The notes: generated by a model from the sequence alone, not told the origin. Counted from the stretch's first letter, positions 1 through 58,720 are shown. The stretch is DNA of 64,000 nucleotides from Thermoanaerobaculia bacterium (GCA_963664405.1 OY761158.1:899020-963019), one strand, 5' to 3'. Translations and numbers: made by a program.

Positions 1-2373
1 CCAGAAGAAACCGCCGAGGTTCAGCGAATGGTTGCCGAGCTGGAAGGTGCGGCTGGCGGAGAGGTTCAGCACGTGCTCGCGGTCGTCGCCGGTGCGGCCA
101 AAGTAGTTGATCGCGGTCAGCGGGATGCCGCTCACCGGATCGACGACCGTTTTGCCCTCGAGGAAGGGGTTGTCGTCGTCGTTGCGGCAGCACAGGTTGC
201 CTTCGGAACGGCCCAGGGTGTAGTTCGACCGGACCACCCAGTTGTTGCGAAAGCTCCGGTTGAGCTCGAGCTGCAGCCCCTGGTACTCGCGCTGGCCCTC
301 CGGGTAGTTGGCGACCAGCCGGAAGACGCTGCCGTCCGGGGCGAATTGGTCGTTCGGCCACATCAGGTCGTCATGGTCCCAGAAGATGCCCCGGGCCTTG
401 AACGCCCACAGGTCAGAGAACTGCCACTCTACGCCCAGGGTGACCTCGTCCTTGTAGTAGGGATTGATGTCGGTGATCAGGGTATCGAGCGCCGGTATCT
501 GCGTGCGCCGGAATATGTCGTACAGCCCGGTCGCAGAGTTCCACCCGAACTCGTTGTAGGCGTTGACGCCGTTGGGCTTTCGTGTGAACTCGTCGTTCAC
601 GACCTCCTGCGCGATGTGATGGTAGTAGCGGCCCACCGTCCCTTTGAAGAGGAGCCGTCCGTTGCCGCTGGCGTCGTAGACCGCCGCCAGCCGGGGGGCG
701 AGGTCGGTCGAGGAGGCCGCGACGTCCCCGATGTCATTCTTCTGCTCCTGGTCCTCCACCCGCAGACCCACCGTCATCGACCAGTGATCGCCCCAGGAGA
801 GACGGTCCTGGACGAAGAGGGCGATGGCGGTTGACTCGGTCTCGATGAGCCCCGCGGACGGCAGGTACACCCGCTTCCGCACGGGGACCTCGAACCCCCC
901 AGGTGCGTTGGCGTCGAAGTTCCTGCCCTGGTAGCGGTCGGGCACGTTGTTGAGCGTCTCCCAGTTCACCACCTGCCAGTCGGCTCCGAACTTGAGCTCG
1001 TGCACGCCGGCGAACAGGCTGAAGGCCGAGTTCGCCTGATTACGAGGATAATAGCGCTGACCGGTGCCGAGCGGACTGGCGATGGCCAGGCGCCGAAAGC
1101 CGGAGTTCAGGTCCCAGTAGGCGCCGACGTTCCCCGCCGTATCATCGGGGCTGGCATTCGGGTCGGCGGTCCTGGTCACGAGCTGGCTGCGGTCGAAGAC
1201 GGCCCTGTGTGCGGCGGCGCGGGTCTCGAGGAACATGTTGGAGCTCACGGTCCAGTTCCAGTTCGCCATCGCGAGCTCCTGGTCGACCTCCTGGTGCGGA
1301 ACCGAGAAGACATCGAAGCGGTTTGGGTTGGAAAGGCTGCGAAAGGTGTGGGGAGCGTTGATTCCCATGACGTAGAAGCTGTGACTCGAGCCGGGCTGGA
1401 AGTTCAGCTTCGCCAAGGCCACTTCGCCCTGGTTGCTACTGTCCACGGGGGTTTGGTCACCCGTGGCGGCGAGTACGTTTTCCGTGTCCTCGGAGTAGGA
1501 GACGAAGAACCACGCCTTGTCCCGCGCCATCGGTCCCCCGAGGGCGGTCTCGTAGCTGTTCTGGATCTCGTCGTTCCGGGGGAGCGGCACCGCGTCGTAC
1601 TCGGCGCGCCACTTCTGGCTCTGGGGGATGTAGCGGAAGTCGCCGTGGAAGCGGTTGGTGCCCGACTTCACCATCGCGTTGGCGATCCCTCCGGTGACCC
1701 TGCCGTACTCTGCGGTATACCCCGAGCCCTCGATCCGCACCTCGGATATGACGGTGGAGGGCAAAAACAGCTGGGAGCTGCCGCCGAGGCGGGAGAACGA
1801 AGTGTCGACGCCGTCGATGAAGCCGCCAAGATCCTGCCAGGATTGGCCGTTCACCCCCGCGCGGTGGTCGTACCAGTACTGGGATCGGGCGTTTTGATAC
1901 ACCCCCGGCATGGAGGTCAGCACCGACTGCCAGCTGCGCGAAGCGAAGGCGAGGGTTTCGGTGACCTCGGCCGCCATCGATGTCGTCGTCGAGACGTCGT
2001 ACTTGTTGACCAGCGGCACCTCGGAGACGACCTGAATGGTCTCGCCGGCGGTGGCGAGTCGCAGCGTGAGGTCGACGGTGCGGCGCTGGCCAGTCCCGAC
2101 CCGCAGCTCGGCCTCGGCCATCCCCAGGCCCTCGAGCTCCGCCGTCACGGTGTACGGCCCGGGTGCGAGAAGACCGAAGCGGTACTGCCCCTGGGCATCG
2201 GTCCTGGTGTCGTGGGAGCCTTGCTCGCTCCCGAGCGTCACGCTGGTGCCGGGGAGCGCCTCCCCGTCCGAGCTGGTGATCGTTCCCTGGATGGTCCCGG
2301 TCAGGGTGCCGTCGGCTAAGAGCGGAGGAGCAAGAAGAATCGAGATTCCGAGAGCTAACATCAATCTGTGCAT
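1..2373 (-). CDS. Outer-membrane protein with N-terminal carboxypeptidase-regulatory-like domain (TonB-dependent receptor-like), partial; the 3' end runs off the window
   Basis: Minus-strand translation from ATG at 2373 gives MHRLMLALGISILLAPPLLADGTLTGTIQG..., a signal peptide followed by a CarboxypepD_reg-like segment and long beta-barrel-like sequence. GGAG Shine-Dalgarno lies upstream. The stop is not in the window, so it is absent from the ORF track. The track ORFs 28..834 and 1000..2319 are its antisense shadows. Confidence 0.7.
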   Translation of the reverse strand, partial: MHRLMLALGISILLAPPLLADGTLTGTIQGTITSSDGEALPGTSVTLGSEQGSHDTRTDAQGQYRFGLLAPGPYTVTAELEGLGMAEAELRVGTGQRRTVDLTLRLATAGETIQVVSEVPLVNKYDVSTTTSMAAEVTETLAFASRSWQSVLTSMPGVYQNARSQYWYDHRAGVNGQSWQDLGGFIDGVDTSFSRLGGSSQLFLPSTVISEVRIEGSGYTAEYGRVTGGIANAMVKSGTNRFHGDFRYIPQSQKWRAEYDAVPLPRNDEIQNSYETALGGPMARDKAWFFVSYSEDTENVLAATGDQTPVDSSNQGEVALAKLNFQPGSSHSFYVMGINAPHTFRSLSNPNRFDVFSVPHQEVDQELAMANWNWTVSSNMFLETRAAAHRAVFDRSQLVTRTADPNASPDDTAGNVGAYWDLNSGFRRLAIASPLGTGQRYYPRNQANSAFSLFAGVHELKFGADWQVVNWETLNNVPDRYQGRNFDANAPGGFEVPVRKRVYLPSAGLIETESTAIALFVQDRLSWGDHWSMTVGLRVEDQEQKNDIGDVAASSTDLAPRLAAVYDASGNGRLLFKGTVGRYYHHIAQEVVNDEFTRKPNGVNAYNEFGWNSATGLYDIFRRTQIPALDTLITDINPYYKDEVTLGVEWQFSDLWAFKARGIFWDHDDLMWPNDQFAPDGSVFRLVANYPEGQREYQGLQLELNRSFRNNWVVRSNYTLGRSEGNLCCRNDDDNPFLEGKTVVDPVSGIPLTAINYFGRTGDDREHVLNLSASRTFQLGNHSLNLGGFFW

Positions 2374-2480
2374 AACCTTCTCCTGGGTTGGACCACTCGA
2401 AGGCAACCAGACTGCCATTCGACCCCTCCTCGAGTGGTCACTTTACGACGCAGGATAGCCTATCAGAGAATCCCGTCTCG

Positions 2481-2500
2481 TCTATGACGCCGGTCATAGA
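2481..2500. promoter_or_regulatory. Perfect 8-bp-arm palindrome tctatgac-gccg-gtcataga in the divergent intergenic region
   Basis: Read directly from the sequence. It sits between the start of the outer-membrane gene (2373, minus) and the recombinase start. It is a candidate operator. Confidence 0.25.
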
Positions 2501-2547
2501 AAGGCCGAGGACGGGCCGCTCTTTCCCTACCCTGCTCGCTCGCCTTT

Positions 2548-3283
2548 TTGGGTACCGCGAGTGCGCGGACAGGCCGAAGGCCAAGGCGGCCATGCGAAGG
2601 ACACCTAGTGCTCGTCGTTATCAGTCTCTATATCGCCAGCGCGATCTCGCAGTTCCTCGAGTGGTGTGAGAGCCGGAAGCTCGAGCTCCACACGCTCGAG
2701 CCCATCATCATCGCCGCCTACATCGAGGAGCTCGGTCAACGGCGATCGCCGACGACTGTGAAGCAAAACCTCGCAGCCATTCGGATGCTCATGGACTATC
2801 TCGTGGTGGGTCAAGTGCTTCCCTTCAATCCGGCCGCCGCGGTGCGTGGGCCGAAGCACGTCGTCAAGGTCGGCAAGACCCCCGTTCTCTTCGAGGACGA
2901 TGCACGGAAGCTCTTCGAAGCAATCGACGCGTCGCACGTTGTTGGTCTGCGCGATCGCGCAATGATCGGCGTGATGATTTACTCCTTTGCTCGTGTCGGG
3001 GCCGTGGTGGCCATGCGCGTGAAGGACTACTACACCCAAGGACACCGAGCCTGGTTCGTGCTCCACGAAAAAGGTGGCCGCCATCATCGTGTGCCGGCAC
3101 ACCACAAGGCCGTCGAGTATCTCGATGCCTATGTTGAGGCCGCAGGTATCGCGAAGGAAGGTTCCTCGAAGCTCTTCCGTACCGCCCGCGGGAAAACGCG
3201 AGAGCTGACCGATCGAGGGATGACCCAAAGCGACGCGCTCCGCATGACGAAGCGTCGGGCCAAGCGGAACCTGTCAAGAACTT
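2548..3283 (+). pseudogene. Tyrosine recombinase/phage-type integrase, N-terminal and central portion, interrupted by an IS3-family insertion
   Basis: The translation has an N-terminal SAM-like core-binding region and the start of the catalytic domain (ARVGAVVAMRVKDY...HRVPAH). The usual C-terminal HxxR...Y segment is missing here and reappears after the IS at 4915..5128 in another frame. Confidence 0.8.
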
Positions 3284-3304
3284 TGAGACACCTTGAGTCA
3301 TAAA

Positions 3305-4309
3305 TTAGTGAAGGTCCTCTTCGGTCGAGGCCGGCGGATCCTCAGGCCGGTTGATATAAACGGTTCCAGGTAAAGGCGCGACGATGGGTCGCCCTCGGAG
3401 GAAGCGTTCTGGGTGAGTTTGGAAGGCGCCATCGAGCGCGACTTGCCGTGCGGCAAGGACCTGCTCCGCTCGACCGTGGTGGACGCCGTGCGGCGTCAGG
3501 TGGGCGATCCCACCGTGGCGGTGCTCGGTGTTGTACCAAGGGAAGAAGGTCCTGCAGAAAGCCTGGGCGGCCTCCTGGCTGGCGAATCGGGAGGGGAAGC
3601 TCGGGTGGTACTTGAGGGTCTTGAACTGGGCCTCGGAAAAGGGGTTGTCGTCACAGACCTGGGGCCGGCTGAGCGACTGAGTGAGTCCCAGATCGGCGAG
3701 CAGCTGAGCCGTGCACTTGGCGGTCATCGGGGAGCCCCGATCGCTGTGCAGGGTGAGCACCTCAGGTTTGACGTCGTGCTTGCAGCAGGTCTCCTCGATG
3801 AGGCGACCGGCGAGATTGGCGTTCTCGCGGGGCGCGAGCATCCAGCCGACGACGTAGCGGCTGAAGATGTCGAGCAGGACGTAGAGGTAGTAGTAGCTCC
3901 ACTTCTCAGGACCCCGCAATCGGGTGATATCCCAGGACCAGACTTGGTTGGGGGCGGCCGCCACCAGCTCCGGCTTGGTGTAGTCGGGGTGGCGAAGCTG
4001 GTTACGCCGTTCGCGCACCGGCGCTCGCGCAGCGAGGATGCGGTACATGGTCCTCTCCGAGCAGAGGTAGCGTTGCTCGTCCAGGAGCGTGGCGACGACC
4101 TCGGCGGGGGCACGGTCGACAAAGCGAGGCGAGTCCAGGACGCCCAGGACGGCTTGGCGCTCGTCCTCGCTCAGAGCCCGGGCAGGTGTTGGCCGGGGCT
4201 GCGGCCCGGTAGATGGCTTCCGACGACGGTACAGGGTCGCCCGTGCCACGCCGAGAGCGACACAGGACGGCTTGACGCCGACCTGCAGCGCCAATTCGGC
4301 TGCGGCCAT
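3305..4309 (-). CDS. IS3-family transposase OrfB (DDE integrase core domain)
   Basis: 334 aa with WSWDITRL...HSDRGSPMTAK...YNTEHRH..., the typical rve/DDE domain of IS3 OrfB. Its start overlaps the OrfA stop (TGATG). Confidence 0.9.
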   Translation of the reverse strand: MAAAELALQVGVKPSCVALGVARATLYRRRKPSTGPQPRPTPARALSEDERQAVLGVLDSPRFVDRAPAEVVATLLDEQRYLCSERTMYRILAARAPVRERRNQLRHPDYTKPELVAAAPNQVWSWDITRLRGPEKWSYYYLYVLLDIFSRYVVGWMLAPRENANLAGRLIEETCCKHDVKPEVLTLHSDRGSPMTAKCTAQLLADLGLTQSLSRPQVCDDNPFSEAQFKTLKYHPSFPSRFASQEAAQAFCRTFFPWYNTEHRHGGIAHLTPHGVHHGRAEQVLAARQVALDGAFQTHPERFLRGRPIVAPLPGTVYINRPEDPPASTEEDLH

Positions 4310-4863
4310 CAGGAGCTCCTCCCGTCCTCGAGGTTGAAGCCCAGCAGCCCGGCAACTTTTCCCTGCACTTCGAGGATCAGCTCTGCCTTGCGCAGCGCCT
4401 CGCGAGTACGGGATAGCTCCTTTTCCAGTTGCTCGACCTTCTTGGCCAGCGGATTGCCGGACTTCGCCTTGCGCCCTCGCCTTCGGCCCAGCCTTCGCAG
4501 AGCGCCGGTCCTGCGTGCCCTGCGCCAGGCCGTCAGGTGGGAGCTGTACAATCCCTCGCGACGCAGGATCGCGCCGATGTCGCCAGGCGTGGCCACTTCG
4601 ACTTCCTCGAGGATTCGCAGCTTGTACTCGGCCGTGAAGGTTCGCCGCGTTGGCTTGGCGACCACCTCAGGATCCAACACAGGGCTCGGCCGCGCCCAGA
4701 TGGCGCCCGCTGCTGCGTCTCCGTGCTCGCTACGCTCGCCCGTCGGCGCCTCCGCGGACCCCAGCTGGGCGCACGGGGGAAGCTGGGAAACCTCCTCCTC
4801 GCCCCGGACCGCAATGGACGTGCCTGCTGATCTCATCTCTTGCATCTTCCTCTCTTCAGACAT
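4309..4863 (-). CDS. IS3-family transposase OrfA (HTH plus leucine zipper)
   Basis: 184 aa with a basic coiled-coil C-terminus (KKVEQLEKELSRTREALRKAELILEVQ), typical of IS3 OrfA. OrfB starts in the -1 frame at its stop codon. Confidence 0.85.
   Translation of the reverse strand: MSEERKMQEMRSAGTSIAVRGEEEVSQLPPCAQLGSAEAPTGERSEHGDAAAGAIWARPSPVLDPEVVAKPTRRTFTAEYKLRILEEVEVATPGDIGAILRREGLYSSHLTAWRRARRTGALRRLGRRRGRKAKSGNPLAKKVEQLEKELSRTREALRKAELILEVQGKVAGLLGFNLEDGRSS
4347..4353 (-). other. Candidate -1 programmed ribosomal frameshift heptamer GGGAAAA (X XXY YYZ) near the end of IS3 orfA
   Basis: On the minus strand the orfA codons read cag gga aaa gtt. A -1 slip reads through into MAAAEL..., the OrfB start, giving an OrfAB fusion. 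Confidence 0.45.
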
Positions 4864-4914
4864 CAGGTTTCACCTCTCCGCCCTACTCTATTTAAGGGGT
4901 GGCGAGATGTCTCA

Positions 4915-5128
4915 AGCATCTTGGCAGAGAGGGAAGAGCGCAGGCTTGCCAACGTCGATCGGCAACCATACCTTTCGGGCGACGGGCATTACTGACTATC
5001 TCGCCAACGGCGGGACGTTGGAAACCGCCGCCCAGATCGCTGGCCACGCCTCAACGCGAACGACCCAGCTCTACAACCGCAATCCCGAACGCATCTCGCT
5101 CGCTGAAATCGAGCGCATCCGGATCTGA
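4915..5128 (+). pseudogene. Tyrosine recombinase C-terminal fragment (HxxR...Y catalytic tail) displaced by the IS3 insertion
   Basis: It is the tail of track ORF 3413..5128: ...NHTFRATGITDYLANGGTLETAAQIAGHASTRTTQLYNRN.... This is the canonical H-x-x-R ... catalytic Tyr box of tyrosine recombinases. Its frame differs from the N-terminal part at 2548..3283. Confidence 0.8.
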
Positions 5129-5136
5129 GAGGACGT

Positions 5137-5180
5137 GTCAGACTACCTCCAGGCCCGCCAACGAAACCCTACCCTTAGCG
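5137..5180 (+). repeat. 44-bp direct repeat copy A (att-like) immediately 3' of the recombinase
   Basis: gtcagactacctccaggcccgccaacgaaaccctacccttagcgg matches 6161-6205 with 2-3 mismatches. Confidence 0.7.
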
Positions 5181-5280
5181 GAACTCTCCCTAGGGATTGC
5201 TTGACTCTCCTTATAGGAGGCCGAAGCCGGCACCAATAGAGGTGAGGGCGGGACGCCCCCCAGAGGAGCAGTGAAATCGC

Positions 5281-6237
5281 ATGACAGACAATCGGCCCGA
5301 ACAGAGGGAGGGACGACCCTTTCACCACGGCGAGTCCCTACCCACGCAACTGACGGAAGAGACCCGTCGCGAGTTTTTCTGGAAGCTCTTTCTCGAGGCC
5401 GCTGAGCGATGTGTGCCCAAGTTCTTCGAGACATACACAACGGCAGTGATAGATCGAACGGAACCGCATAAGGCCCCGTTCGATTTTGAGTTTGCCGGGG
5501 CGATGTACATAAAAAGCGAGGGTGCCAACACGATAGTCGACCAGAAGGTGGTCGACGAGTACAAGTCTGCCCGGTCCCTTTCCGCAGAAGGGCTGATCAA
5601 GGGATGGCTCACCGAGTGGCGGATACAGCTCCGCCCCGAAGTGGAGGACGAGGTTCTGTCACTCTTCGTGAACCCTATCGTTCTCCCACCCCGGGTTCAG
5701 ACGTGGACCGACGTGACACAGGGGTGGACGAACGGCATCTGCAAGAAATATATTGATGACCAAAACGCCATAGTGGGCCATATGTGGTCGAACGGAGACG
5801 TGTGGTGGGCCGAAGACGAGAAGCAAGCACCGTTCCGCCCGTACAATCCCCTCAGAGTTACGCGCGAGGACTGGCTGGATCATGCACGAAAGTACTGCGA
5901 CCTCGTTGAGGCTGCCGCCCGCTGGTGGGGCAGTAGCGATACTTCGATGGGCTCTCGCCGAGAGCGTCATCTTGGTGGCGATCGGCTGACAGCCGAGCGG
6001 GACACAGCATGGTTGGTGCGACGTCTGCTTCTCGGGGAGTCGCCAGATCGGATCGCCAGGGTCTACGACGACGAGCTTGAGAAGGCGGGGGTGGATGATG
6101 ACGTTCAGCCGAAGGGCCGTATGGTGACGAAAGCCCTTCGGCGGACGGCCAAAACAATGGGAGTCAGACTTCCTCCGGGCCCGCCAACGAAACCCTACCC
6201 TTACCACTCCTTAGCCCTCCAAAGAGAAGAGGGGTGA
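5281..6237 (+). CDS. Hypothetical protein, 318 aa; low-GC cargo gene between the att-like direct repeats
   Basis: Long ORF with ATG start. Its composition is visibly AT-richer than the flanks. I recognised no conserved domain. Its 3' end is encoded by direct-repeat copy B. Confidence 0.6.
   Translation: MTDNRPEQREGRPFHHGESLPTQLTEETRREFFWKLFLEAAERCVPKFFETYTTAVIDRTEPHKAPFDFEFAGAMYIKSEGANTIVDQKVVDEYKSARSLSAEGLIKGWLTEWRIQLRPEVEDEVLSLFVNPIVLPPRVQTWTDVTQGWTNGICKKYIDDQNAIVGHMWSNGDVWWAEDEKQAPFRPYNPLRVTREDWLDHARKYCDLVEAAARWWGSSDTSMGSRRERHLGGDRLTAERDTAWLVRRLLLGESPDRIARVYDDELEKAGVDDDVQPKGRMVTKALRRTAKTMGVRLPPGPPTKPYPYHSLALQREEG
6161..6205 (+). repeat. 44-bp direct repeat copy B (att-like)
   Basis: gtcagacttcctccgggcccgccaacgaaaccctacccttaccac is the second copy of the 5137-5180 repeat. 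It overlaps the 3' end of the cargo CDS. Confidence 0.7.
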
Positions 6238-6243
6238 CGGCCG

Positions 6244-6363
6244 ATGCTAATTGAGATCCTGGGTCTCGCTATCGCTGCCGTTGGTGCGGCCGCCGCTGTG
6301 TATGCCGCATGGCGTACGCGAGACAAGGTGGAACCCACCGAGCATGATCAGAGTACTCAGTAA
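6244..6363 (+). CDS. Small 39-aa single-pass membrane peptide (MLIEILGLAIAAVGAAAAVYAAWRTRDKVEPTEHDQSTQ); candidate type I-toxin-like or holin-like peptide
   Basis: Not in the ORF track because it is under 60 aa. ATG lies 7-9 nt after a GAGGGG Shine-Dalgarno and is translationally coupled to the stop of 5281..6237. It has a hydrophobic helix followed by a charged tail. Confidence 0.35.
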   Translation: MLIEILGLAIAAVGAAAAVYAAWRTRDKVEPTEHDQSTQ

Positions 6364-6520
6364 ACAAGGAAACCCCCCGGCCTGCCTGTATGGACAGAGG
6401 GGCTCTCTCTTTGTATTCGTCCGCGATGCCGCGCCAGGAAAAGCCGAGAGTTCCTCTCTGTGACCCTTGAGCTGCGGTAGCAAGTGTCTCGTCATTCTGG
6501 CCGTCCGCCTATCCCCCCAC

Positions 6521-6548
6521 TTGACGAACTCTCGCGACCCGGTAGTAT
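6521..6548 (+). promoter_or_regulatory. Near-consensus sigma70-type promoter (TTGACG, 16-nt spacer, TAGTAT) upstream of the RHH antitoxin gene
   Basis: cacTTGACGaactctcgcgacccggTAGTATgg sits about 30 nt upstream of the ATG at 6579. Confidence 0.4.
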
Positions 6549-6578
6549 GGAGTCATACCAGCTAACACAATAGGTTCT

Positions 6579-6848
6579 ATGGAAATGGCTCACAAAAAAC
6601 TCTCCATCTCGCTACCCCCTGATCTCTATGAGCAGGCCGAGGCCGTGCGGAAGGCCGAGCACCGTACACGCTCAGAGCTCGTCCGAGAAGCGCTGCGCTC
6701 CTACATAGAGCGCTCCCGTCGCATTCCCGTGGTCGAACCCACCAGCCAAGAGGCGCGCATGTTCAAGGACGGCTGGAAGGCTTACAAGGCCAACGAGTAC
6801 GTGACACTCGAAGAGCTTCACAATGAGATGGCAGGTAGTCACAAATAG
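6579..6848 (+). CDS. Ribbon-helix-helix (CopG/ParD-like) antitoxin
   Basis: 89 aa. An N-terminal beta-strand then two helices (SISLPPDLYEQAEAVRKAEHRTRSELVREALRSYIE) is the classic RHH fold. It overlaps the downstream toxin gene by 26 nt. Confidence 0.8.
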   Translation: MEMAHKKLSISLPPDLYEQAEAVRKAEHRTRSELVREALRSYIERSRRIPVVEPTSQEARMFKDGWKAYKANEYVTLEELHNEMAGSHK

Positions 6849-7095
6849 GGCCGCCGTCAGAGACATCCGACGCCTCCCTACCCGAGCCCGCACCCGGATT
6901 CTTGAGGCCATCTCCGACATGGCCATCGATCCTTTCAGTGGAGACGTCGTTCGACTCAAGGGGCGCTCACCGCGTCTCGAATTTCGCCGTCGGGTTGGGT
7001 CGTGGCGCATCCTCTTCGGCGTCGACTACGATCAGACGACGGTCGTCGTCTTCAGAGTAGCTCGTCGCACAACACGCACCTACAAGAAATCATGA
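6823..7095 (+). CDS. RelE/ParE-family type II toxin
   Basis: 90 aa; ...RLKGRSPRLEFRRRVGSWRILFGVDYDQTTVVVFRVARR... matches the RelE/ParE core. Its stop overlaps the parA start (ATGA). Confidence 0.8.
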   Translation: MRWQVVTNRAAVRDIRRLPTRARTRILEAISDMAIDPFSGDVVRLKGRSPRLEFRRRVGSWRILFGVDYDQTTVVVFRVARRTTRTYKKS

Positions 7096-7589
7096 CCACC
7101 ACCCTCGCCATCGTGAACCAAAAAGGAGGTGTCGGAAAGACGACGAGTACGATCAACCTCGCCTATGCCCTCGCTCAGCAGGGCAAGCGCGTTTTGATGG
7201 TGGACACTGACCCGCAAGCGAGCCTGACGAAGTACGCAGGCTATGAGCCCGACGAGCTCGAGCTCGCCGGCACGACGCTCTATCACGGCCTCACGACGCG
7301 GAAGGCGCTACGGAAGCTCATCCTCAAGAACGAGAGCGTGGACCCACATCTTCTGGCTGCAAGCAAGAACCATCACCATGACATTGGTGCTGCCGCCAAA
7401 AAGCGCGGCAACATCATGCTCCGCGATGCCCTGGCCAAGATCAAAGACGACTACGACTTTGTCCTCATTGACTCACCGCCCTGGCTCGGTAAGGTAACAG
7501 GACCAGCGGGGCCATTTGAACGAAAACCTACCGGTTTCGGTGCCGGTCCGACAGTCAGAGCCGTAGGATTCGGTAGGAGAATCACCTAA
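7092..7589 (+). pseudogene. parA: ParA/Soj-family partition ATPase, C-terminally truncated; the tail is encoded by the Tn3 inverted repeat
   Basis: MTTTLAIVNQKGGVGKTTSTINLAYALA... shows Walker A and continues through DYDFVLIDSPPWLG. The reading frame then runs into the Tn3-family IR (7508..7545) and ends after 27 unrelated residues. About 110 C-terminal residues of a normal ParA are absent. Confidence 0.75.
7508..7545 (+). repeat. Tn3-family terminal inverted repeat (left)
   Basis: See the mobile_element entry. The outer GGGG is at 7508. Confidence 0.75.
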
Positions 7590-9379
7590 TTGTCGCCCTC
7601 GATGAAGTACGTGCCGTTGGGCATGACGTGCTTGAACGGTAGCAGCGAGATGTGCGACAGATCCTCGTCGTCGATCGCCTCGCCCTCGGCTCGAAGCCGG
7701 TCGACGATCTCGCCGATCCGGACCGTGTTCCAGTACAGGATCGCGTTTGAGACGAGGCTCAGACAACTCGCCTTGTTCATGATCTCGACGTAGTCGCCGG
7801 TCGTGAACTCGCCTTGGTCGGCGAAGAAGATCCAGCGCGACAGCTTCTGTCGGTACTCTCCCTTGTTGAGCTGCTTCTGGACCGTCCGGCGCAGCTCTCG
7901 ATCGGTGAAGTATCGAAGGACGTAGTTCGTCTTCACCATGCGGCCGAGGCTGCGGACCGCCTTCGACAACCGATCGTGAGGAGACCCGCTAGTGAGGCGC
8001 TGTACGACCACGTTCGCTGGAGCCGTCCTCAGTTTGAGAGACCACGCGACCCGCATCATTGGATCCCACTGCTCCTCGATCAAGTCGAGGTCAACCGTCT
8101 TCCTCAGTAGAGGAGCGAACGCTCCTTCAGCCGAGGACCTCGATGGTCGATAGAGTTGCTGGCTCTTGAGGTTCTTGATCCGCGGCATGAAGTAGTACCC
8201 AGCAGGTAGCACAGAGCGAAGACGATCTCGGTGTAGCCATCCGTGTCGGTTGTATGTTCTCGGAGCCGGAGAATCGTGTTGTTATCGAGGAGACCGTCCA
8301 GGACGTAGAGCGCCTCCCGAGGACCACACGAGATCGCTCGCGTGCTGAAGACCGCGAACTGGTCGGAAACGTGCGTGTACAGGCTGATCCCTTTGTCGTA
8401 GTACCCGAAGTATCGGGGGTAGTACGACGCGAGGAGGCTGGCCGCACGGATCTTGAACCGCTGACCATCAGATGACGACGTCTGGCCATCGCCGTGGATG
8501 GCGCTCAGCGGTAGAGCGTGGTGAGCGTTGACGATGGCCGCGTTTGCATCATTCAGAGTCTCCTCCCGGATGTAGTAGTGGAGAACGTAGCGGAGCATGT
8601 CCAGAGTGACGCCGGTAACACTCGCGCTCATGGAAACGACGCCGAGGTTCGTTGCCTGGGAGATGATCGCTGCTAGCAGCGATTTGTAGAACTCCTCCGG
8701 CCTCGAGCGGTGTTGTTGTACCGGCAGGAAGCTCTGAGTAAAGCGGGTCGATCGATCGACATCCATGAGGAGCTGCTCGACCCGAACCAGCGGCAAGCTG
8801 GCGTTGATCATCTTCTGCAGTCGGCTCTCCGGCGGCTTCTTCTTGTCGTCTCGACGGAGCTTCAGCCTTCCTTGGTCGACCCGAGCGAATCGGTCCTGGC
8901 CATATCGACTGCCGGCTCGCCGGTTCCCGTCCTGAAACTCGTCGACAAGTCTCGGCCGCACCTCGGTAGGTTGGGGCTGCTCGAGGTCGGCAAATGAATC
9001 CGCCTTCGAATCCTCCCACCGATCGTCCGAGAGAAGGAGGTCCCAGAACGCAACGTGCTGTTTGCTCTCGGGGATGAATAGGTCCCCCGAGCGAAACGCG
9101 TCCCGGAGCGCCAGAGCCAGTCCGGTTTCCCAAGCGTTGCGATTGAGTGAGCCCGGCTCTTCTCCGGGAAGCACCGAGCGCAGGTCGCTCGCGACGAAGC
9201 CAGTCGGCGCGTCCGCGGGAAGGCTCTTGAGGGAGTCGCTCGAGTTCGTTCCCGGTCAACGACCAATCTCGGACAAGCTCGTCATCGGAAAGGCGCTCGG
9301 GTAGTGCAACCGCGTGGCGTCGCTGGCGGCCCGAGAGAAAGCGTTCCGGAGGAGGACGGTTTTCACTGATGCCGATCAC
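7586..9379 (-). pseudogene. tnpA: Tn3-family transposase TnpA remnant in three frames (9379-9260 N-terminus, 9174-8104 DDE region, 8212-7586 C-terminus); about 400 internal residues deleted
   Basis: Track ORFs 8549..9379, 8104..9174 and 7586..8212 hold, in order: the TnpA N-terminal motif (LSDDELVRDWSLT), the central DDE region (SSDGQRFKIRA...YFGYYDKGISLYTHVSDQFAVF...YVLDGLL...EHTTDTDGYTEIVFALCYLLG), and the C-terminal region (QLNKGEYRQKLSRWIFFADQGEF...LYWNTV...LSHISLLPFKHV). Total length is about 600 aa versus about 1000 for an intact TnpA. Confidence 0.8.
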
Positions 9380-9608
9380 CCCCTGGATTGTTCAGAGCAG
9401 TCCTCGTTCGTGGCGCCTCATGAGAGCGGTGACCGGGACGCGTAGTGCCTGATACTCAGGAGCCAGAGGGCTCGGGTGCGGTTTCAAGGTCGGACTACAC
9501 TAGCCCAACACGCTCTTCGTGAAGCTAGATAACGAACACGATAGGCGAAGAACGCGGAACCGTACCAAGGGCTGGGCAACTGGGACCGACCAACTGGCCA
9601 CTACCTCC

Positions 9609-9646
9609 GAGCGACCGGAACCGTAAGTTTTCGTTCAAATGCCCCC
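9609..9646 (-). repeat. Tn3-family terminal inverted repeat (right)
   Basis: Reverse complement of 9609-9646 matches IR-L at about 85%. Confidence 0.75.
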
Positions 9647-9653
9647 GCAGATC

Positions 9654-9815
9654 CATCCTGCGGAAGATCAGTATCACTTCCTCCGGATGCGGAATATGGC
9701 GCCGAGGACGGCGCATCCTGCGGAAGTGATCGGTATCACTTCCTTCGGATGCGGAATATGGCGCCGAGGACGGCGCACTTGGGCGTTGCTTCCTATCCGC
9801 TCCGGGGAACGGCAC
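9654..9815 (+). repeat. Tandem 62-64-bp repeat units; each unit holds a palindrome (GAAGTGAT-CGGT-ATCACTTC) plus the GC hairpin GGCGCCGAGGACGGCGC; member of a dispersed repeat family
   Basis: Two tandem copies of catcctgcggaag(tg)atc(g)gtatcacttcc(t)tcggatgcggaatatggcgccgaggacggcg, then cacttgggcgttgcttcctatccgctccggggaacgg. The same modules recur at 21016-21062 and 58281-58720. Confidence 0.6.
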
Positions 9816-9957
9816 AGGCAGAACCGAGCCGCGGCACCCCGTCCCCGGTTTCGTTTCCTGCCGCGCACTCCTCTAGCCGCCACTAGCTCAAGCGCTCAGA
9901 AACAAACTGCCCCGCTTCGACGTCAGAAGGGAAAGTCGAAAATCGAGGAGGAAGAAC

Positions 9958-10332
9958 ATGCATCGACCAACAACGCTGTGGTTCCTGGCTTTCGTAGTCG
10001 TCTCATTGGTGGGCCTTCCCGCCGCGGCCGGCGAGGGGGTTCTGGGAAAATGGGAGGCCGCCATCGAGACGCAGAGGGGTAGCAACGAGATCGTGATGGA
10101 GTTCAAGGGATCAGACGAAGAGCTCCAGGGAACGTGGACTGACGGACGTGGCGCCGCAGATCTCGACGACTTGAAGTACGCCGACGGCAAGCTCAGCTTC
10201 AAACGCGCTGTCGAGTTCCAGGGCAACTCCTTCACTCTCGGCTATGCGGCCACGGTCGACGGCGACACGATGAATGTCACGATGACAACGCCCCAAGGAG
10301 AGAGGGAGTTCACCGCCAAGCGCGCCAACTAA
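9958..10332 (+). CDS. Small secreted protein of unknown function (signal peptide plus beta-rich domain)
   Basis: Strong Shine-Dalgarno (ggaggaagaacATG). N-terminal hydrophobic signal LWFLAFVVVSLVGLPAAAG. Confidence 0.6.
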   Translation: MHRPTTLWFLAFVVVSLVGLPAAAGEGVLGKWEAAIETQRGSNEIVMEFKGSDEELQGTWTDGRGAADLDDLKYADGKLSFKRAVEFQGNSFTLGYAATVDGDTMNVTMTTPQGEREFTAKRAN

Positions 10333-10353
10333 CGCCACCCGCAAGCAACGCGC

Positions 10354-10944
10354 TCAGTTGACCGCGCTTGTCCCCGACTCGCGGTACTCCTCCGAGAGCT
10401 GGCGGAGGACGGAGAGCATCGACTCGCCGTCGTAGACGCCGCCGAAGAGCCAGTTGTCGAGCAGTATCGTCGGCACGCCGGTGACGCCAAGGGCGAACGC
10501 TTCGCGGGTGCTGTCTTCGACACTCTCGAAGCCGTGCTCCTCGTCGGCAAGCGGGTCCACACCGACCAGCTCCTTCGCCAGTTGGAGCAGGGTAGGTGTC
10601 AGCTGGGGCGTCTTGTGCTCGAAGATGGAACCGAAGACCTCCTTGCGCCAGCGTGCTTCCGCGCTTGGAGAATCCGTGTGGAGCGCCACCACAGAGGCGG
10701 GCCGGGAGTCGAGCCAAGGATCCGGCATCTCCGCGCGGACGCCAAGGGACCTCCCCGTCTCGCGAACAGAATTTCGAATCTCCTCGCGAAAGGAATCACC
10801 CCGACCCCAAGGTGCGGCCATCGTGAGGTCGATCGGGCGCCATTCGAGCTCCACGCCAAGCTCGGCGATCTCCTCTTCGATGTTTGAAAGCACGCAATGG
10901 GCCACGTAGCAGAGGGTCGACGCGAAGTCGTAGTAGACCCGCAT
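10354..10944 (-). CDS. DsbA/FrnE-like thioredoxin-fold oxidoreductase
   Basis: MRVYYDFASTLCYVAH... is a DsbA-like N-terminus with a redox-motif region. I trimmed the start to the internal ATG because the track ORF start overlaps the divergent neighbouring gene. Confidence 0.6.
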   Translation of the reverse strand: MRVYYDFASTLCYVAHCVLSNIEEEIAELGVELEWRPIDLTMAAPWGRGDSFREEIRNSVRETGRSLGVRAEMPDPWLDSRPASVVALHTDSPSAEARWRKEVFGSIFEHKTPQLTPTLLQLAKELVGVDPLADEEHGFESVEDSTREAFALGVTGVPTILLDNWLFGGVYDGESMLSVLRQLSEEYRESGTSAVN

Positions 10945-11053
10945 GCTGACGATTTCCATCGTGTCGCTATTCTTGGCGCAAACGAGGCTCCTGTCCAGCT
11001 CGAGGCGACAATCGATTAGGATCAGGGTCGTAAGTACAGAAAACGGGAGGATC

Positions 11054-11842
11054 ATGAGCTACGAACGGATCAAGCTCGAGTTCGAAGGAAACGTCGCCGT
11101 CCTGCGCTTCAATCATCCGGAGGTCCTGAACGCCATTGGCGCCCAGATGGTCGGTGAGATTGCCGACGCCATTGCAGAAATCGAGGACCCCAGCAACGGC
11201 GCGCGCTGTCTGCTGATCACCGGCGAGGGAAGAGCCTTCTGCTCCGGCGCGAACCTGGCGGATAGCGGTCGAGAGCAGCGGTCCGGGGGAGCGAGAGGGA
11301 TGCTGCGCGGCAACTATCATCCCATTCTGTGCGCCTTGCGGGACCTCGAGATGCCCATCGTCAGCGCCGTCCACGGGGCGGCGGCCGGAGTCGGGATGAG
11401 CTTCGCGATCATGGCCGACATCGTTTGCGCCTCGAAGGAAGGTTACTTCCTGCAAGCCTTCGCCAGGATCGGGTTGGTTCCCGACGGCGGCGCCACCTTT
11501 CTGCTGCCGCGGCTCGTCGGATGGGGCCGAGCCGCCGAGCTGGCGTTGTTGGCGGAGAAGCTGCCGGCGGAGAAGGCGCTGGAGTGGGGATTGGTGAATC
11601 GACTCTACGACGACCAGGAGAGCTTGATGGAGGGGGCGATGGAAATGGCTCAGAGATTGGCGAACGGGCCGCGGTCCCTGGCGCTGATCCGCAGGGCCTT
11701 ATGGGCCACCTGGCAGCACGCCTACGAACAGCAGTTGGATCTGGAGGCCCGCCTCCAAGGTGAGGCCTCACGGAGCGAAGACGCCCGCGAAGGCGGGCTC
11801 GCCTTCCTTGAAAAGCGGAAGCCGGACTTCAAGGGCAGGTAG
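11054..11842 (+). CDS. Enoyl-CoA hydratase/isomerase (crotonase) family protein
   Basis: MSYERIKLEFEGNVAVLRFNHPEVLNA...ITGEGRAFCSGANL...VHGAAAGVGMSFA... is the crotonase fold signature. GGGAGG Shine-Dalgarno lies upstream. Confidence 0.85.
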   Translation: MSYERIKLEFEGNVAVLRFNHPEVLNAIGAQMVGEIADAIAEIEDPSNGARCLLITGEGRAFCSGANLADSGREQRSGGARGMLRGNYHPILCALRDLEMPIVSAVHGAAAGVGMSFAIMADIVCASKEGYFLQAFARIGLVPDGGATFLLPRLVGWGRAAELALLAEKLPAEKALEWGLVNRLYDDQESLMEGAMEMAQRLANGPRSLALIRRALWATWQHAYEQQLDLEARLQGEASRSEDAREGGLAFLEKRKPDFKGR

Positions 11843-11884
11843 GGGCGGGCCCCGGCTTTTCTGCGACTCTCAAAGGAGACAAGA

Positions 11885-12253
11885 ATGAAGGTGGTACGGG
11901 TATACGCGGGCGACGACGGCGAGTCACATTTCGAAGACGTGGAGATCGCGACTGAGGCGCGCGGCGTTGGCGGGCGACTGTCGAGACTGATCCAAGGCAG
12001 CGGAGTGATTTTCCGCGAAGTCGACGGGAGTTACGATCTCGACTTCCATACCGCTCCGCGGCGGCAATTCGTCGTAAATCTGACCGGCTCAGTCGACATC
12101 ACGGTCGGCGATGGCACAGTTCGACGCCTGGGCTCCGGCGAGATCCTCCTCGCCGAAGACACCACCGGCCACGGCCACAAGAGCCACGCGGTAGAAGGCC
12201 AACCCCGCTCATGCCTCTTCATACCGCTCAGTGACGATGCCGAAGTAGCGTAG
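11885..12253 (+). CDS. Cupin-domain protein
   Basis: 122 aa. Small beta-barrel-like sequence with a His cluster (TTGHGHKSHAVEG). AAGGAG Shine-Dalgarno. Confidence 0.55.
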   Translation: MKVVRVYAGDDGESHFEDVEIATEARGVGGRLSRLIQGSGVIFREVDGSYDLDFHTAPRRQFVVNLTGSVDITVGDGTVRRLGSGEILLAEDTTGHGHKSHAVEGQPRSCLFIPLSDDAEVA

Positions 12254-20961: not shown

Positions 20962-21015
20962 CGACTTCTCAGCTTAACAGCCTAGAGAACTGACGAGCTA
21001 GGCTGCCGAACAGGG

Positions 21016-21062
21016 TGCCGAGGACGGCGCGCTCTGCCGAAGTGATGGGCATCATAGGGACC
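21016..21062 (+). repeat. Third-locus copy of the hairpin-plus-palindrome repeat family, upstream of the Gfo/Idh/MocA gene
   Basis: ggtgccgaggacggcgcgctctgccgaagtgatgggcatcatagg parallels ggcgccgaggacggcgcatcctgcggaagtgatcggtatcac at 9700-9745. Confidence 0.45.
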
Positions 21063-21097
21063 GGGTCTAGGGTCACTGCTAACATCGCCCTCCTCGC

Positions 21098-58280: not shown

Positions 58281-58720
58281 CGGGGAAAATGATGGATATC
58301 ATTTCCCCCGACTAGTTGTTCTTTGGCGCCGAGGACGGCGCACTCAGGCGGTGCTTCCTATTCGCTCCGGGCAGCGGTCCGGTTTCCTTCCGCGCAGACT
58401 CCTCTAGGAAGCCTGGACCACAGGAGCTACGGGTGCGCCGTCCTCGGCGTCCTTCCCGAGAGCGGCTCCGCAGGAGCCGGTCGAGTTGACCGCCGTGGAG
58501 CTCGCGCCAGCGAGGTCACAAGAACAACAATGAGCCGGAGGAAATGATAGCCATCATTTCTGGAGGCGAAGCCCGAACGCTAGGAGAGTGTCCGAGTATT
58601 CGGCCAGAGCCGTTTCCCGGAGCGAGTAGGAAGCAACGCCCTAGTGCGCCGTCCTCGGCGCCAACAACAATGAGCCGGAGGAAATGATAGCCATCATTTC
58701 TGGAGGCGAAGCCCGAACAC
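58281..58720. repeat. Dense composite repeat array: three AAATGAT-N4-ATCATTT palindromes (58286-58307, 58541-58560, 58685-58704); a 55-bp inverted-repeat pair built on GGCGCCGAGGACGGCGCAC (58324-58380 versus 58605-58662); and a 57-bp direct repeat (58519-58576 and 58663-58720) that duplicates the last codons of the PQQ-ADH gene
   Basis: Read directly from the sequence. The modules match those at 9654-9815 and 21016-21062. The region lies between the convergent 3' ends of 56813..58279 and 58694..60358. Confidence 0.7.

Follow-up and report, generated by a model that had tools for sequence, protein, structure and literature searches.

A 64,000-nucleotide stretch of a Thermoanaerobaculia bacterium genome (GCA_963664405.1 OY761158.1:899020-963019; hereafter the window) carries at positions 2616-9654 what is very likely a stump, the left part of a plasmid-like integrative element put out of action by a small number of discrete events. 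Every component is of a known kind: a tyrosine recombinase (gene int), an IS3-family insertion sequence (IS), a ribbon-helix-helix (RHH)/ParE toxin-antitoxin (TA) pair, a ParA stump and the remnant of a Tn3-family transposon. The sequence read is this 64-kb window of a 6.78-Mb source contig, and absences from the genome as a whole rest on protein-database look-up. A preliminary description of the same DNA had recognized a damaged island of mobile and plasmid-derived parts. All four features that it described are present, with junction coordinates corrected here by 8-90 bp. The features, in window coordinates, are as follows.

2616-2638, plus strand: left terminus, the 23-mer CGTTATCAGTCTCTATATCGCCA, at which similarity among the window and the relatives L001 and L095/96/97 starts
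2639-3264, plus strand: int fragment, about codons 53-260
3262-3264, no strand: left copy of the IS target-site duplication, AAG (right copy at 4934-4936)
3265-4933, minus strand: IS3-family IS, 1,669 bp, its ends set by two copies and their duplications
4934-5128, plus strand: int C-terminal fragment, codons 261-324 (HxxR, H and Y), starting with the right AAG copy
5137-6203, plus strand: two 41-bp direct repeats (5137-5177 and 6163-6203) around an open reading frame (ORF) of 318 amino acids (aa) at 5281-6237
6579-7095, plus strand: type II TA pair, with an RHH antitoxin (6579-6848) and a toxin of the ParE/RelE fold (6823-7095)
7092-7499, plus strand: 5' part of parA, codons 1-136 of 258
7500-9654, minus strand: Tn3-family transposon remnant, 2,155 bp, both inverted repeats (IRs) kept
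9655-9830, plus strand: chromosomal repeats resembling repetitive extragenic palindromic (REP) sequences, in two 62-bp tandem units (9654-9715 and 9714-9777) plus a tail, abutting the right IR

The reading as a stump is founded on relatives in which the module is whole. A search for an uninterrupted recombinase found one in four metagenome contigs (L001, L095, L096 and L097), all of which carry an unbroken int (324 aa), TA pair, parA (258 aa) and parB (273 aa), in that order. In L001 the row continues with a 326-aa gene, the modules of L095-L097 are 99% identical to that of L001, and parA and parB overlap in these intact relatives. With the rejoined window recombinase as query, a protein search gave the L001 recombinase (P0001, 324 aa) as a relative with 94% identity. 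These four contigs serve here as stand-ins for the uninterrupted recombinase and for the "empty sites". The resemblance of the window to the intact modules is limited to four segments: 2616-2638, matching the L001 23-mer upstream of int with one mismatch; 2639-3264, matching about codons 53-260 of L001 int at 92%; 4933-5128, matching the C-terminal part of L001 int at 87%; and 7092-7500, matching the 5' part of L001 parA at 85.6%.

The left end is fixed by the 23-mer, which in the intact copies (CGTTATCAGTCGCTATATCGCCA) sits 5 nt upstream of the int ATG, so that int begins 29 bp inside the terminus. This same sequence meets three different left contexts, in the window, in L001 and in L095-97. 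Because similarity starts at the 23-mer with different DNA to its left each time, we take it to be the terminus of the element, and it shows the property expected of an integrative element, a single terminus that borders unlike host DNA from one genome to another. The order int-TA-parA-parB in the intact relatives recalls stability modules that combine a tyrosine recombinase, a type II TA pair and ParA/ParB. Two differences from such modules are apparent. A fixed terminus joined to differing flanks fits integration better than plasmid multimer resolution, and the TA cassette varies between copies, being Unstab_antitox/ParE in the relatives and RHH/ParE with the 318-aa ORF in the window. The ParA/ParB part of such a system is represented in the window by ParA residues 1-136 of 258, with no partner ParB there.

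The recombinase gene has two lesions. It had been described as 2548-3283 plus 4915-5128, split by an IS3 element; the split stands, and true homology covers 2639-3264 and 4933-5128. The TTG at 2548 taken as its start is spurious. A deletion of about 160 bp beside the 23-mer has taken away the real ATG and the first 51-52 codons, and the 23-mer is now fused to about codon 53. This 5'-end deletion is a second lesion beyond the IS split and was absent from the preliminary description. No N-terminal remnant occurs in any frame upstream of 2626, with 120 homologues as source, and the possibility that window 2374-2615 hides the N-terminus was rejected when the first 75 residues of homologues of at least 300 aa gave no tblastn match there. 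The first int fragment aligns without gaps to L001 10158-10783 (blastn, 92%) and to residues 52-261 of the protein (tblastn, 95%), and contains the Pfam Phage_integrase and SAM-like domains. The C-terminal fragment aligns to L001 10780-10975 (blastn, 87%) and covers positions 119-168 of 172 in Phage_integrase. A tyrosine recombinase domain is therefore recognizable by Pfam in an ORF that is not intact, having lost its 5' end and been split by the IS. The protein is not XerC or XerD by the NCBIfam equivalog cut-offs, scoring 115.5 and 111.1 bits against 329.6 and 335, and the closest named relatives of int are in Acidobacteriota metagenome-assembled genomes, at 65%.

The IS insertion between the two halves of int can be read to the base. 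Positions 10780-10783 of L001 align twice, to window 3261-3264 and to 4933-4936, and excising the IS with one copy of the duplication restores the int reading frame, the insertion lying at codon 260/261. The 3-bp duplication and the restored frame confirm the earlier view that an IS3 insertion split the recombinase. A second copy of the IS, in another assembly (L084 2377-4045), is 99.94% identical over exactly 1,669 bp, with one mismatch, encodes an identical OrfB and has its own 3-bp duplication, ATG, where the window has AAG on the plus strand (CTT in the orientation of the IS). The length previously put at 1.63 kb is accordingly 1,669 bp. Both genes are whole, orfA at 4863-4309 and orfB at 4309-3305 in the -1 frame, with the orfA stop and the orfB ATG overlapping at 4311-4307. 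The heptamer G_GGA_AAA is found at 4363-4357, and no stop interrupts the -1 frame between it and orfB, from which programmed frameshifting is predicted. The element is thus intact and has a slippery site, as first described. OrfB alone scores 181.8 bits against the NCBIfam transpos_IS3 cut-off of 160, and the Pfam domains are rve (78 bits), rve_3 and HTH_Tnp_1. Since the source contig holds several OrfA/OrfB variants of this IS, it is multi-copy, and it is probably active.

Elements of the IS3 family make 3-5 bp target-site duplications and have terminal inverted repeats ending in 5'-TG...CA-3'. The IS in the window resembles the IS3, IS911 and IS150 type in having a helix-turn-helix OrfA followed by an rve (DDE) OrfB in the -1 frame, with an X_XXY_YYZ heptamer in the overlap, and it resembles the family as a whole in its 3-bp duplication, its 1.67-kb size and its score above the NCBIfam cut-off. 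It differs in three respects. Its ends extend 7 bp past the usual TG...CA: the IRs are imperfect, with TG and CA 7 bp inside each tip (CCCTCTC-TG ... CA-GGTTCCG in IS orientation), and the 7 non-complementary bp outside them (window 3265-3271 and 4927-4933) are backed by the two copies with their own duplications. Its OrfA has an N-terminal extension of about 70 aa, and the plasmid-borne relatives nearest to it reach only about 68% identity.

At the other end of the stump, parA is cut by the Tn3-family remnant. The remaining part was mapped by tblastn with L001 ParA residues 1-136 (90%) and by blastn to L001 11819-12227 (85.6%). It contains the Pfam AAA_31 and CbiA domains with the Walker A motif KGGVGKTT. 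Homology ends with ...DSPPWLGKVT at 7499, exactly at the tip of a Tn3-family IR, and the ORF continues into the IR and stops at 7589. Truncation by such an IR had been seen before; the cut, placed after DSPPWLG at the GGGG motif (7508), in fact lies three codons later, at the tip, 7500. The 3' half of parA was thought to be missing downstream, and neither it nor parB was found anywhere in the 64-kb window. In a protein-database search with the C-terminal part of ParA and with ParB, every close relative listed came from other contigs, and the members of the nearest clusters do not include the 6.78-Mb contig. No ParB of the island type is attributed to that contig, down to about 40% identity among the matches listed.

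The position of the transposon tips is given by relatives. The IRs at 7500-7541 and 9614-9654 match at about 86% and have the tip GGAyCnGCGGGG. The left tip is GGACCAGCGGGG at 7500, the sequence onward from 7500 being GGACCAGCGGGGCCATTTGAACGAAAAC, and the right tip, originally put at 9646, is at 9654, both tips lying 8 bp outside GGGG. A Tn3-family element on Acaryochloris marina pREC3 has the tip GGACCAGCGGGGGCATTTGAAC at both its ends, and one on Alteromonas macleodii pTE101a has the near-identical GGACCCGCGGGGGCATTTGAAC at the end distal to tnpA. Because the tip is common to the pREC3 and pTE101a elements, 7500 and 9654 are the true tips. A tip 8 bp outside GGGG is therefore a trait that the remnant has in common with these two relatives. 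The IR start GGAyCnGC of this Tn3 subgroup occurs at window 7500-7507 and 9647-9654, at 525 and 5302 of L003, and at 5652 of L002.

Beyond the right tip lies chromosomal DNA. The two REP-like units belong to a family with the invariant core GGCGCCGAGGACGGCGC and a variable hairpin, with further copies at about 20980-21080 (21001-21054) and at 58285-58715. A metagenome contig (L086), 91% identical to window 11165-9759, has a single REP unit at the orthologous place (L086 1379-1497) and runs from it into a gene for a 104-aa membrane protein, which the window lacks. From the REP units and this comparison, the right junction lies in chromosomal DNA, with the break in synteny at most about 100 bp from the IR.

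Elements of the Tn3 family have terminal IRs of about 38 bp, make a 5-bp target-site duplication and carry a resolution system (tnpR/res or tnpI, tnpS/T). The remnant in the window is without a 5-bp duplication, its flanks being taaca and atcct. As a separate observation, the Acaryochloris copy likewise has none (tagat and tgtgt). Through intramolecular transposition, Tn3-family elements delete the DNA directly beside them as well as one copy of the duplication, and outcomes of both the cis and the trans pathway have been described (PMC5142620). The truncation exactly at the IR tip, the loss of one duplication copy and the missing distal DNA together form the signature of intramolecular replicative transposition as described there for Tn3-family elements, and the absence of a 5-bp duplication would be expected if a deletion replaced one flank. 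We infer that a Tn3-associated adjacent deletion is the best reading. An adjacent deletion by the Tn3 element had been proposed earlier; the stop of parA at the IR tip, the missing genes and the lack of a duplication agree with it, and its mechanism stays at the level of a likely route. A parallel is provided by Tn1331Δ::IS26, which truncates cloa (PMC5142620): there too the deletion abuts a transposon end, one duplication copy is lost and a neighbouring gene is truncated. That case differs from the window, where the event is deduced without an ancestral intermediate and the transposon has since lost its transposase.

The main competitor of a cis deletion is that parA was lost by homologous recombination between two Tn3-family copies, one inserted in parA and one next to the REP repeats, or that a trans-pathway inversion moved the missing genes elsewhere. 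Recombination between two copies would leave the same ends, a single transposon copy and no 5-bp duplication, and an inversion is among the outcomes on record in the study cited above. No second transposon copy occurs in the 64-kb window, however, and the missing island-type ParB, which an inversion would have retained, is not among the proteins attributed to the contig in the search given above. We regard these routes, taken together, as unlikely, though they keep some weight beside the cis deletion.

Several points weigh against the account of a stump made by adjacent deletion, and they are best considered together. The ends left by a cis deletion are indistinguishable from those of recombination between two copies. 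L086, the only such relative found, covers just the right flank and is only 91% identical to the window, and the loss of synteny there could predate the events in the window. The absence of the missing genes outside the 64 kb comes from protein-database look-up, not from genome sequence. The comparators gave neither a right-hand att site nor an empty site from a near-identical strain. Lastly, the int-TA-parAB layout occurs in none of 80 more distant int loci, the order being confined to the close group; in a more distant contig (L098), a different small recombinase lies directly before parAB.

The adjacent deletion would have been followed by decay of the transposon itself. Mapping by tblastn with the 977-aa Alteromonas TnpA places pieces of tnpA at 9346-9254 (aa 5-35), 9231-8197 (aa 427-772) and 8200-7592 (aa 772-974), in frames -1, -2 and -1. 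About 580 of 977 residues are left, about 390 codons having been deleted near 9232-9253, and a 1-nt deletion near 8199, in the stretch LLG|YYFMP, shifts the frame and splits the Pfam DDE_Tnp_Tn3 domain at model position 192/193 into fragments that score 226 and 214 bits. The internal deletion reported previously (about 600 of about 1000 aa remaining) is borne out; the pieces occupy two frames and not three. The fragments are 62-70% identical to intact TnpA at the protein level. A tblastn search with the Acaryochloris resolvase found no resolvase in the window. Only about 235 bp separate the tnpA start from the IR, which suits a minimal element with tnpA as its sole gene. The original transposon was probably such an element of about 3.3 kb, the sum of the 2,155 bp left and the roughly 1.17 kb deleted.

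The remnant resembles the Tn3-family elements of pREC3 and pTE101a in its DDE_Tnp_Tn3 transposase and in IRs of about 40 bp with the GGGG motif and ...CATTTGAACGA... It differs from the family in that tnpA is deleted and frameshifted, no resolvase gene or recognizable res site is present and there is no 5-bp duplication. As tnpA is broken and both IRs are kept, the remnant would be mobile only with a transposase supplied in trans.

These observations suggest the following history, in which the letters are labels. (a) A deletion of about 160 bp beside the terminus removed the start codon of the recombinase and 51-52 codons. (b) The multi-copy, probably active IS3-family element (1,669 bp) inserted at recombinase codon 260/261 with a 3-bp duplication. 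(c) A Tn3-family element came to abut parA codon 136 and REP-like DNA without a 5-bp duplication, and the 3' half of parA, parB and the rest of the element, probably with adjoining chromosome, would have been lost with the deletion. The likeliest route would be intramolecular replicative transposition by the cis pathway, deleting the DNA between the transposon and a new target. (d) The transposon then lost about 390 tnpA codons and gained the 1-nt frameshift, keeping both IRs.

The fragments themselves are little eroded. Of the substitutions relative to L001, third positions account for 37 of 49 in the N-terminal part of int, 24 of 25 in its C-terminal part and 43 of 59 in parA. There are no internal stops in the int and parA fragments and none in the roughly 580 retained tnpA codons, and the IS is a single base apart from its copy in L084. 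Because the changes are mainly at third positions and the fragments are free of internal stops, the lesions appear recent relative to the divergence from L001. What was first described as successive insertions and decay is borne out for the insertions and deletions; diffuse decay is not, and the "decay" apparently amounts to about five discrete, fairly recent events and not to long neutral erosion.

Two further explanations concern the region as a whole. The presence of several OrfA/OrfB variants on the same 6.78-Mb contig could raise the suspicion that one or more junctions are assembly chimeras, repeats being classic sites of misjoining. Against this, the two parts of int stand on either side of the IS in the right order and orientation, have a common 3-bp duplication and regain their frame on its removal; the 165-aa ParA-IR fusion and the 356-aa tnpA piece are unique to the source genome, so there is no second copy to misjoin; and both Tn3 IR tips are precise. 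We consider chimeric junctions very improbable. Weakest of all, and hardly credible, is the idea that the arrangement is conserved core DNA, such as a domesticated recombinase fragment with a chromosomal TA-parA, and not the product of insertions: the lack of internal stop codons in the gene fragments would suit it, and the uninterrupted int and parA-parB in four contigs, the missing int start codon, the missing C-terminal half of ParA, a GC content of 0.58-0.60 across 5001-9000 against 0.62-0.66 outside, and the different DNA of L086 beyond the REP unit all speak against it.

Between int and parA, the disabled element differs from its intact relatives throughout. The content of window 5129-7091 is wholly different from that of L001 10976-11818, including the TA family, and the exchange points are gene ends: homology to the intact copies ends at the int stop codon and restarts at the parA start codon. 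At the TA position, the intact relatives carry an unrelated Unstab_antitox/ParE pair. In the window, the antitoxin matches Pfam RHH_1 at 35.6 bits (cut-off 20.5; model positions 2-39 of 39) and the toxin matches ParE_toxin at 26.6 bits (cut-off 23; model positions 4-85 of 89). The genes overlap by 26 nt, antitoxin first, and both are full length against the Pfam models. The earlier statement that only the IS3 element and the RHH-RelE pair look intact thus agrees with the whole ORFs of the former and the model coverage of the latter.

A promoter scan places a promoter-like site, TTGACG-16-TAGTAT, at 6521-6548 before the TA pair, and the toxin stop overlaps the parA start in an ATGA at 7092-7095. 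A reading of these genes as a TA-parA operon is reasonable from their arrangement. With its own promoter-like site and translational coupling to the parA stump, the RHH-ParE/RelE pair may aid persistence of the stump by addiction.

The remainder of this segment is occupied by the 318-aa ORF and its repeats. The 41-bp repeats are 95% identical and 1,026 bp apart, and the first begins 8 nt past the int stop. In-frame translation of repeat 1 yields VRLPPGPPTKPYP and then a stop, and the resulting C-terminus is nearer to the length of the homologues than the present gene end. With codon-position GC1/2/3 of 0.63/0.46/0.68, which is coding-like, the ORF is apparently a true gene. A search of 1.84 billion representatives gave just two distant homologues, making a family of three members, and there is no match in Pfam, NCBIfam or PHROGs; a structure prediction gave a mean pLDDT (predicted local distance difference test) of 37.5. 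One homologue, P0122, directly follows and overlaps the stop of a P4-type integrase gene and is itself followed by an HTH_17 gene (locus L085 3-1713). In both loci whose context can be read, the family therefore stands directly after a tyrosine recombinase, the two recombinases being of different subfamilies.

It is a long shot, on this evidence, that the protein is a rare accessory coupled to integrases (a directionality or regulatory factor), or that the 1,026-bp unit is a single-gene cassette from site-specific recombination. Nothing like the 41-bp repeat follows int in L001 or the other loci. Cassette capture as a trait of the family is not supported: none of 55 loci with complete int showed a similar repeat-bounded unit, and in the single locus where a direct repeat of 16 bp or more starts close to the int stop, the copies lie 120 bp apart. 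The preliminary description suggested that the decay might explain why a cargo gene is stranded here. Just past the 318-aa ORF, at 6244-6363, is a 39-aa ORF (MLIEILGLAIAAVGAAAAVYAAWRTRDKVEPTEHDQSTQ) that may encode a small membrane peptide, with a single hydrophobic helix and a charged tail. It is preceded by an AGAGGGG motif and followed by a terminator-like hairpin at 6396-6410.

Some features lie outside the stump or belong to its relatives. Window 1-2373, on the minus strand, holds a TonB-dependent-receptor-like gene with a signal peptide (MHRLMLALG...), which runs past the left window edge and whose start faces the left end of the island across about 240 bp. TonB receptor genes also occur near int in L001 and L095, and a shared insertion site was considered; they are only about 70% similar to the gene in the window and hence paralogues, whose presence is probably a coincidence of lineage. 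The idea that L001 and L096 differ by a recombinase-made inversion was likewise rejected, the common 216 bp being a mere fragment with different neighbours and no second 23-mer. The intact relatives have secondary insertions of their own, an rve and AAA_22 pair in L001 (16040-19590) and an IS256-like Transposase_mut gene in L095-97 (L095 16528-17781), both of which occupy the same region downstream of the 326-aa gene. No tRNA genes were found in the 64-kb window, and an Rfam scan of window 1-12000 found no family.

The region matters mostly for annotation, where the tnpA pieces and the ORFs of int and of the ParA-IR fusion call for a pseudogene flag; as mobile-DNA decay it is an ordinary case. 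The IS3-family element, previously undescribed and with atypical 7-bp tips, now has exact ends, and the IR tip can be given for a Tn3 subgroup in which it begins 8 bp outside the GGGG motif. The sole lead of wider interest is the orphan protein family beside the integrase, represented here by the 318-aa ORF. For the element itself, the region offers a clean, datable example in which an IS, probably active, and a Tn3-family element dismantle an integrated element and its TA pair survives.

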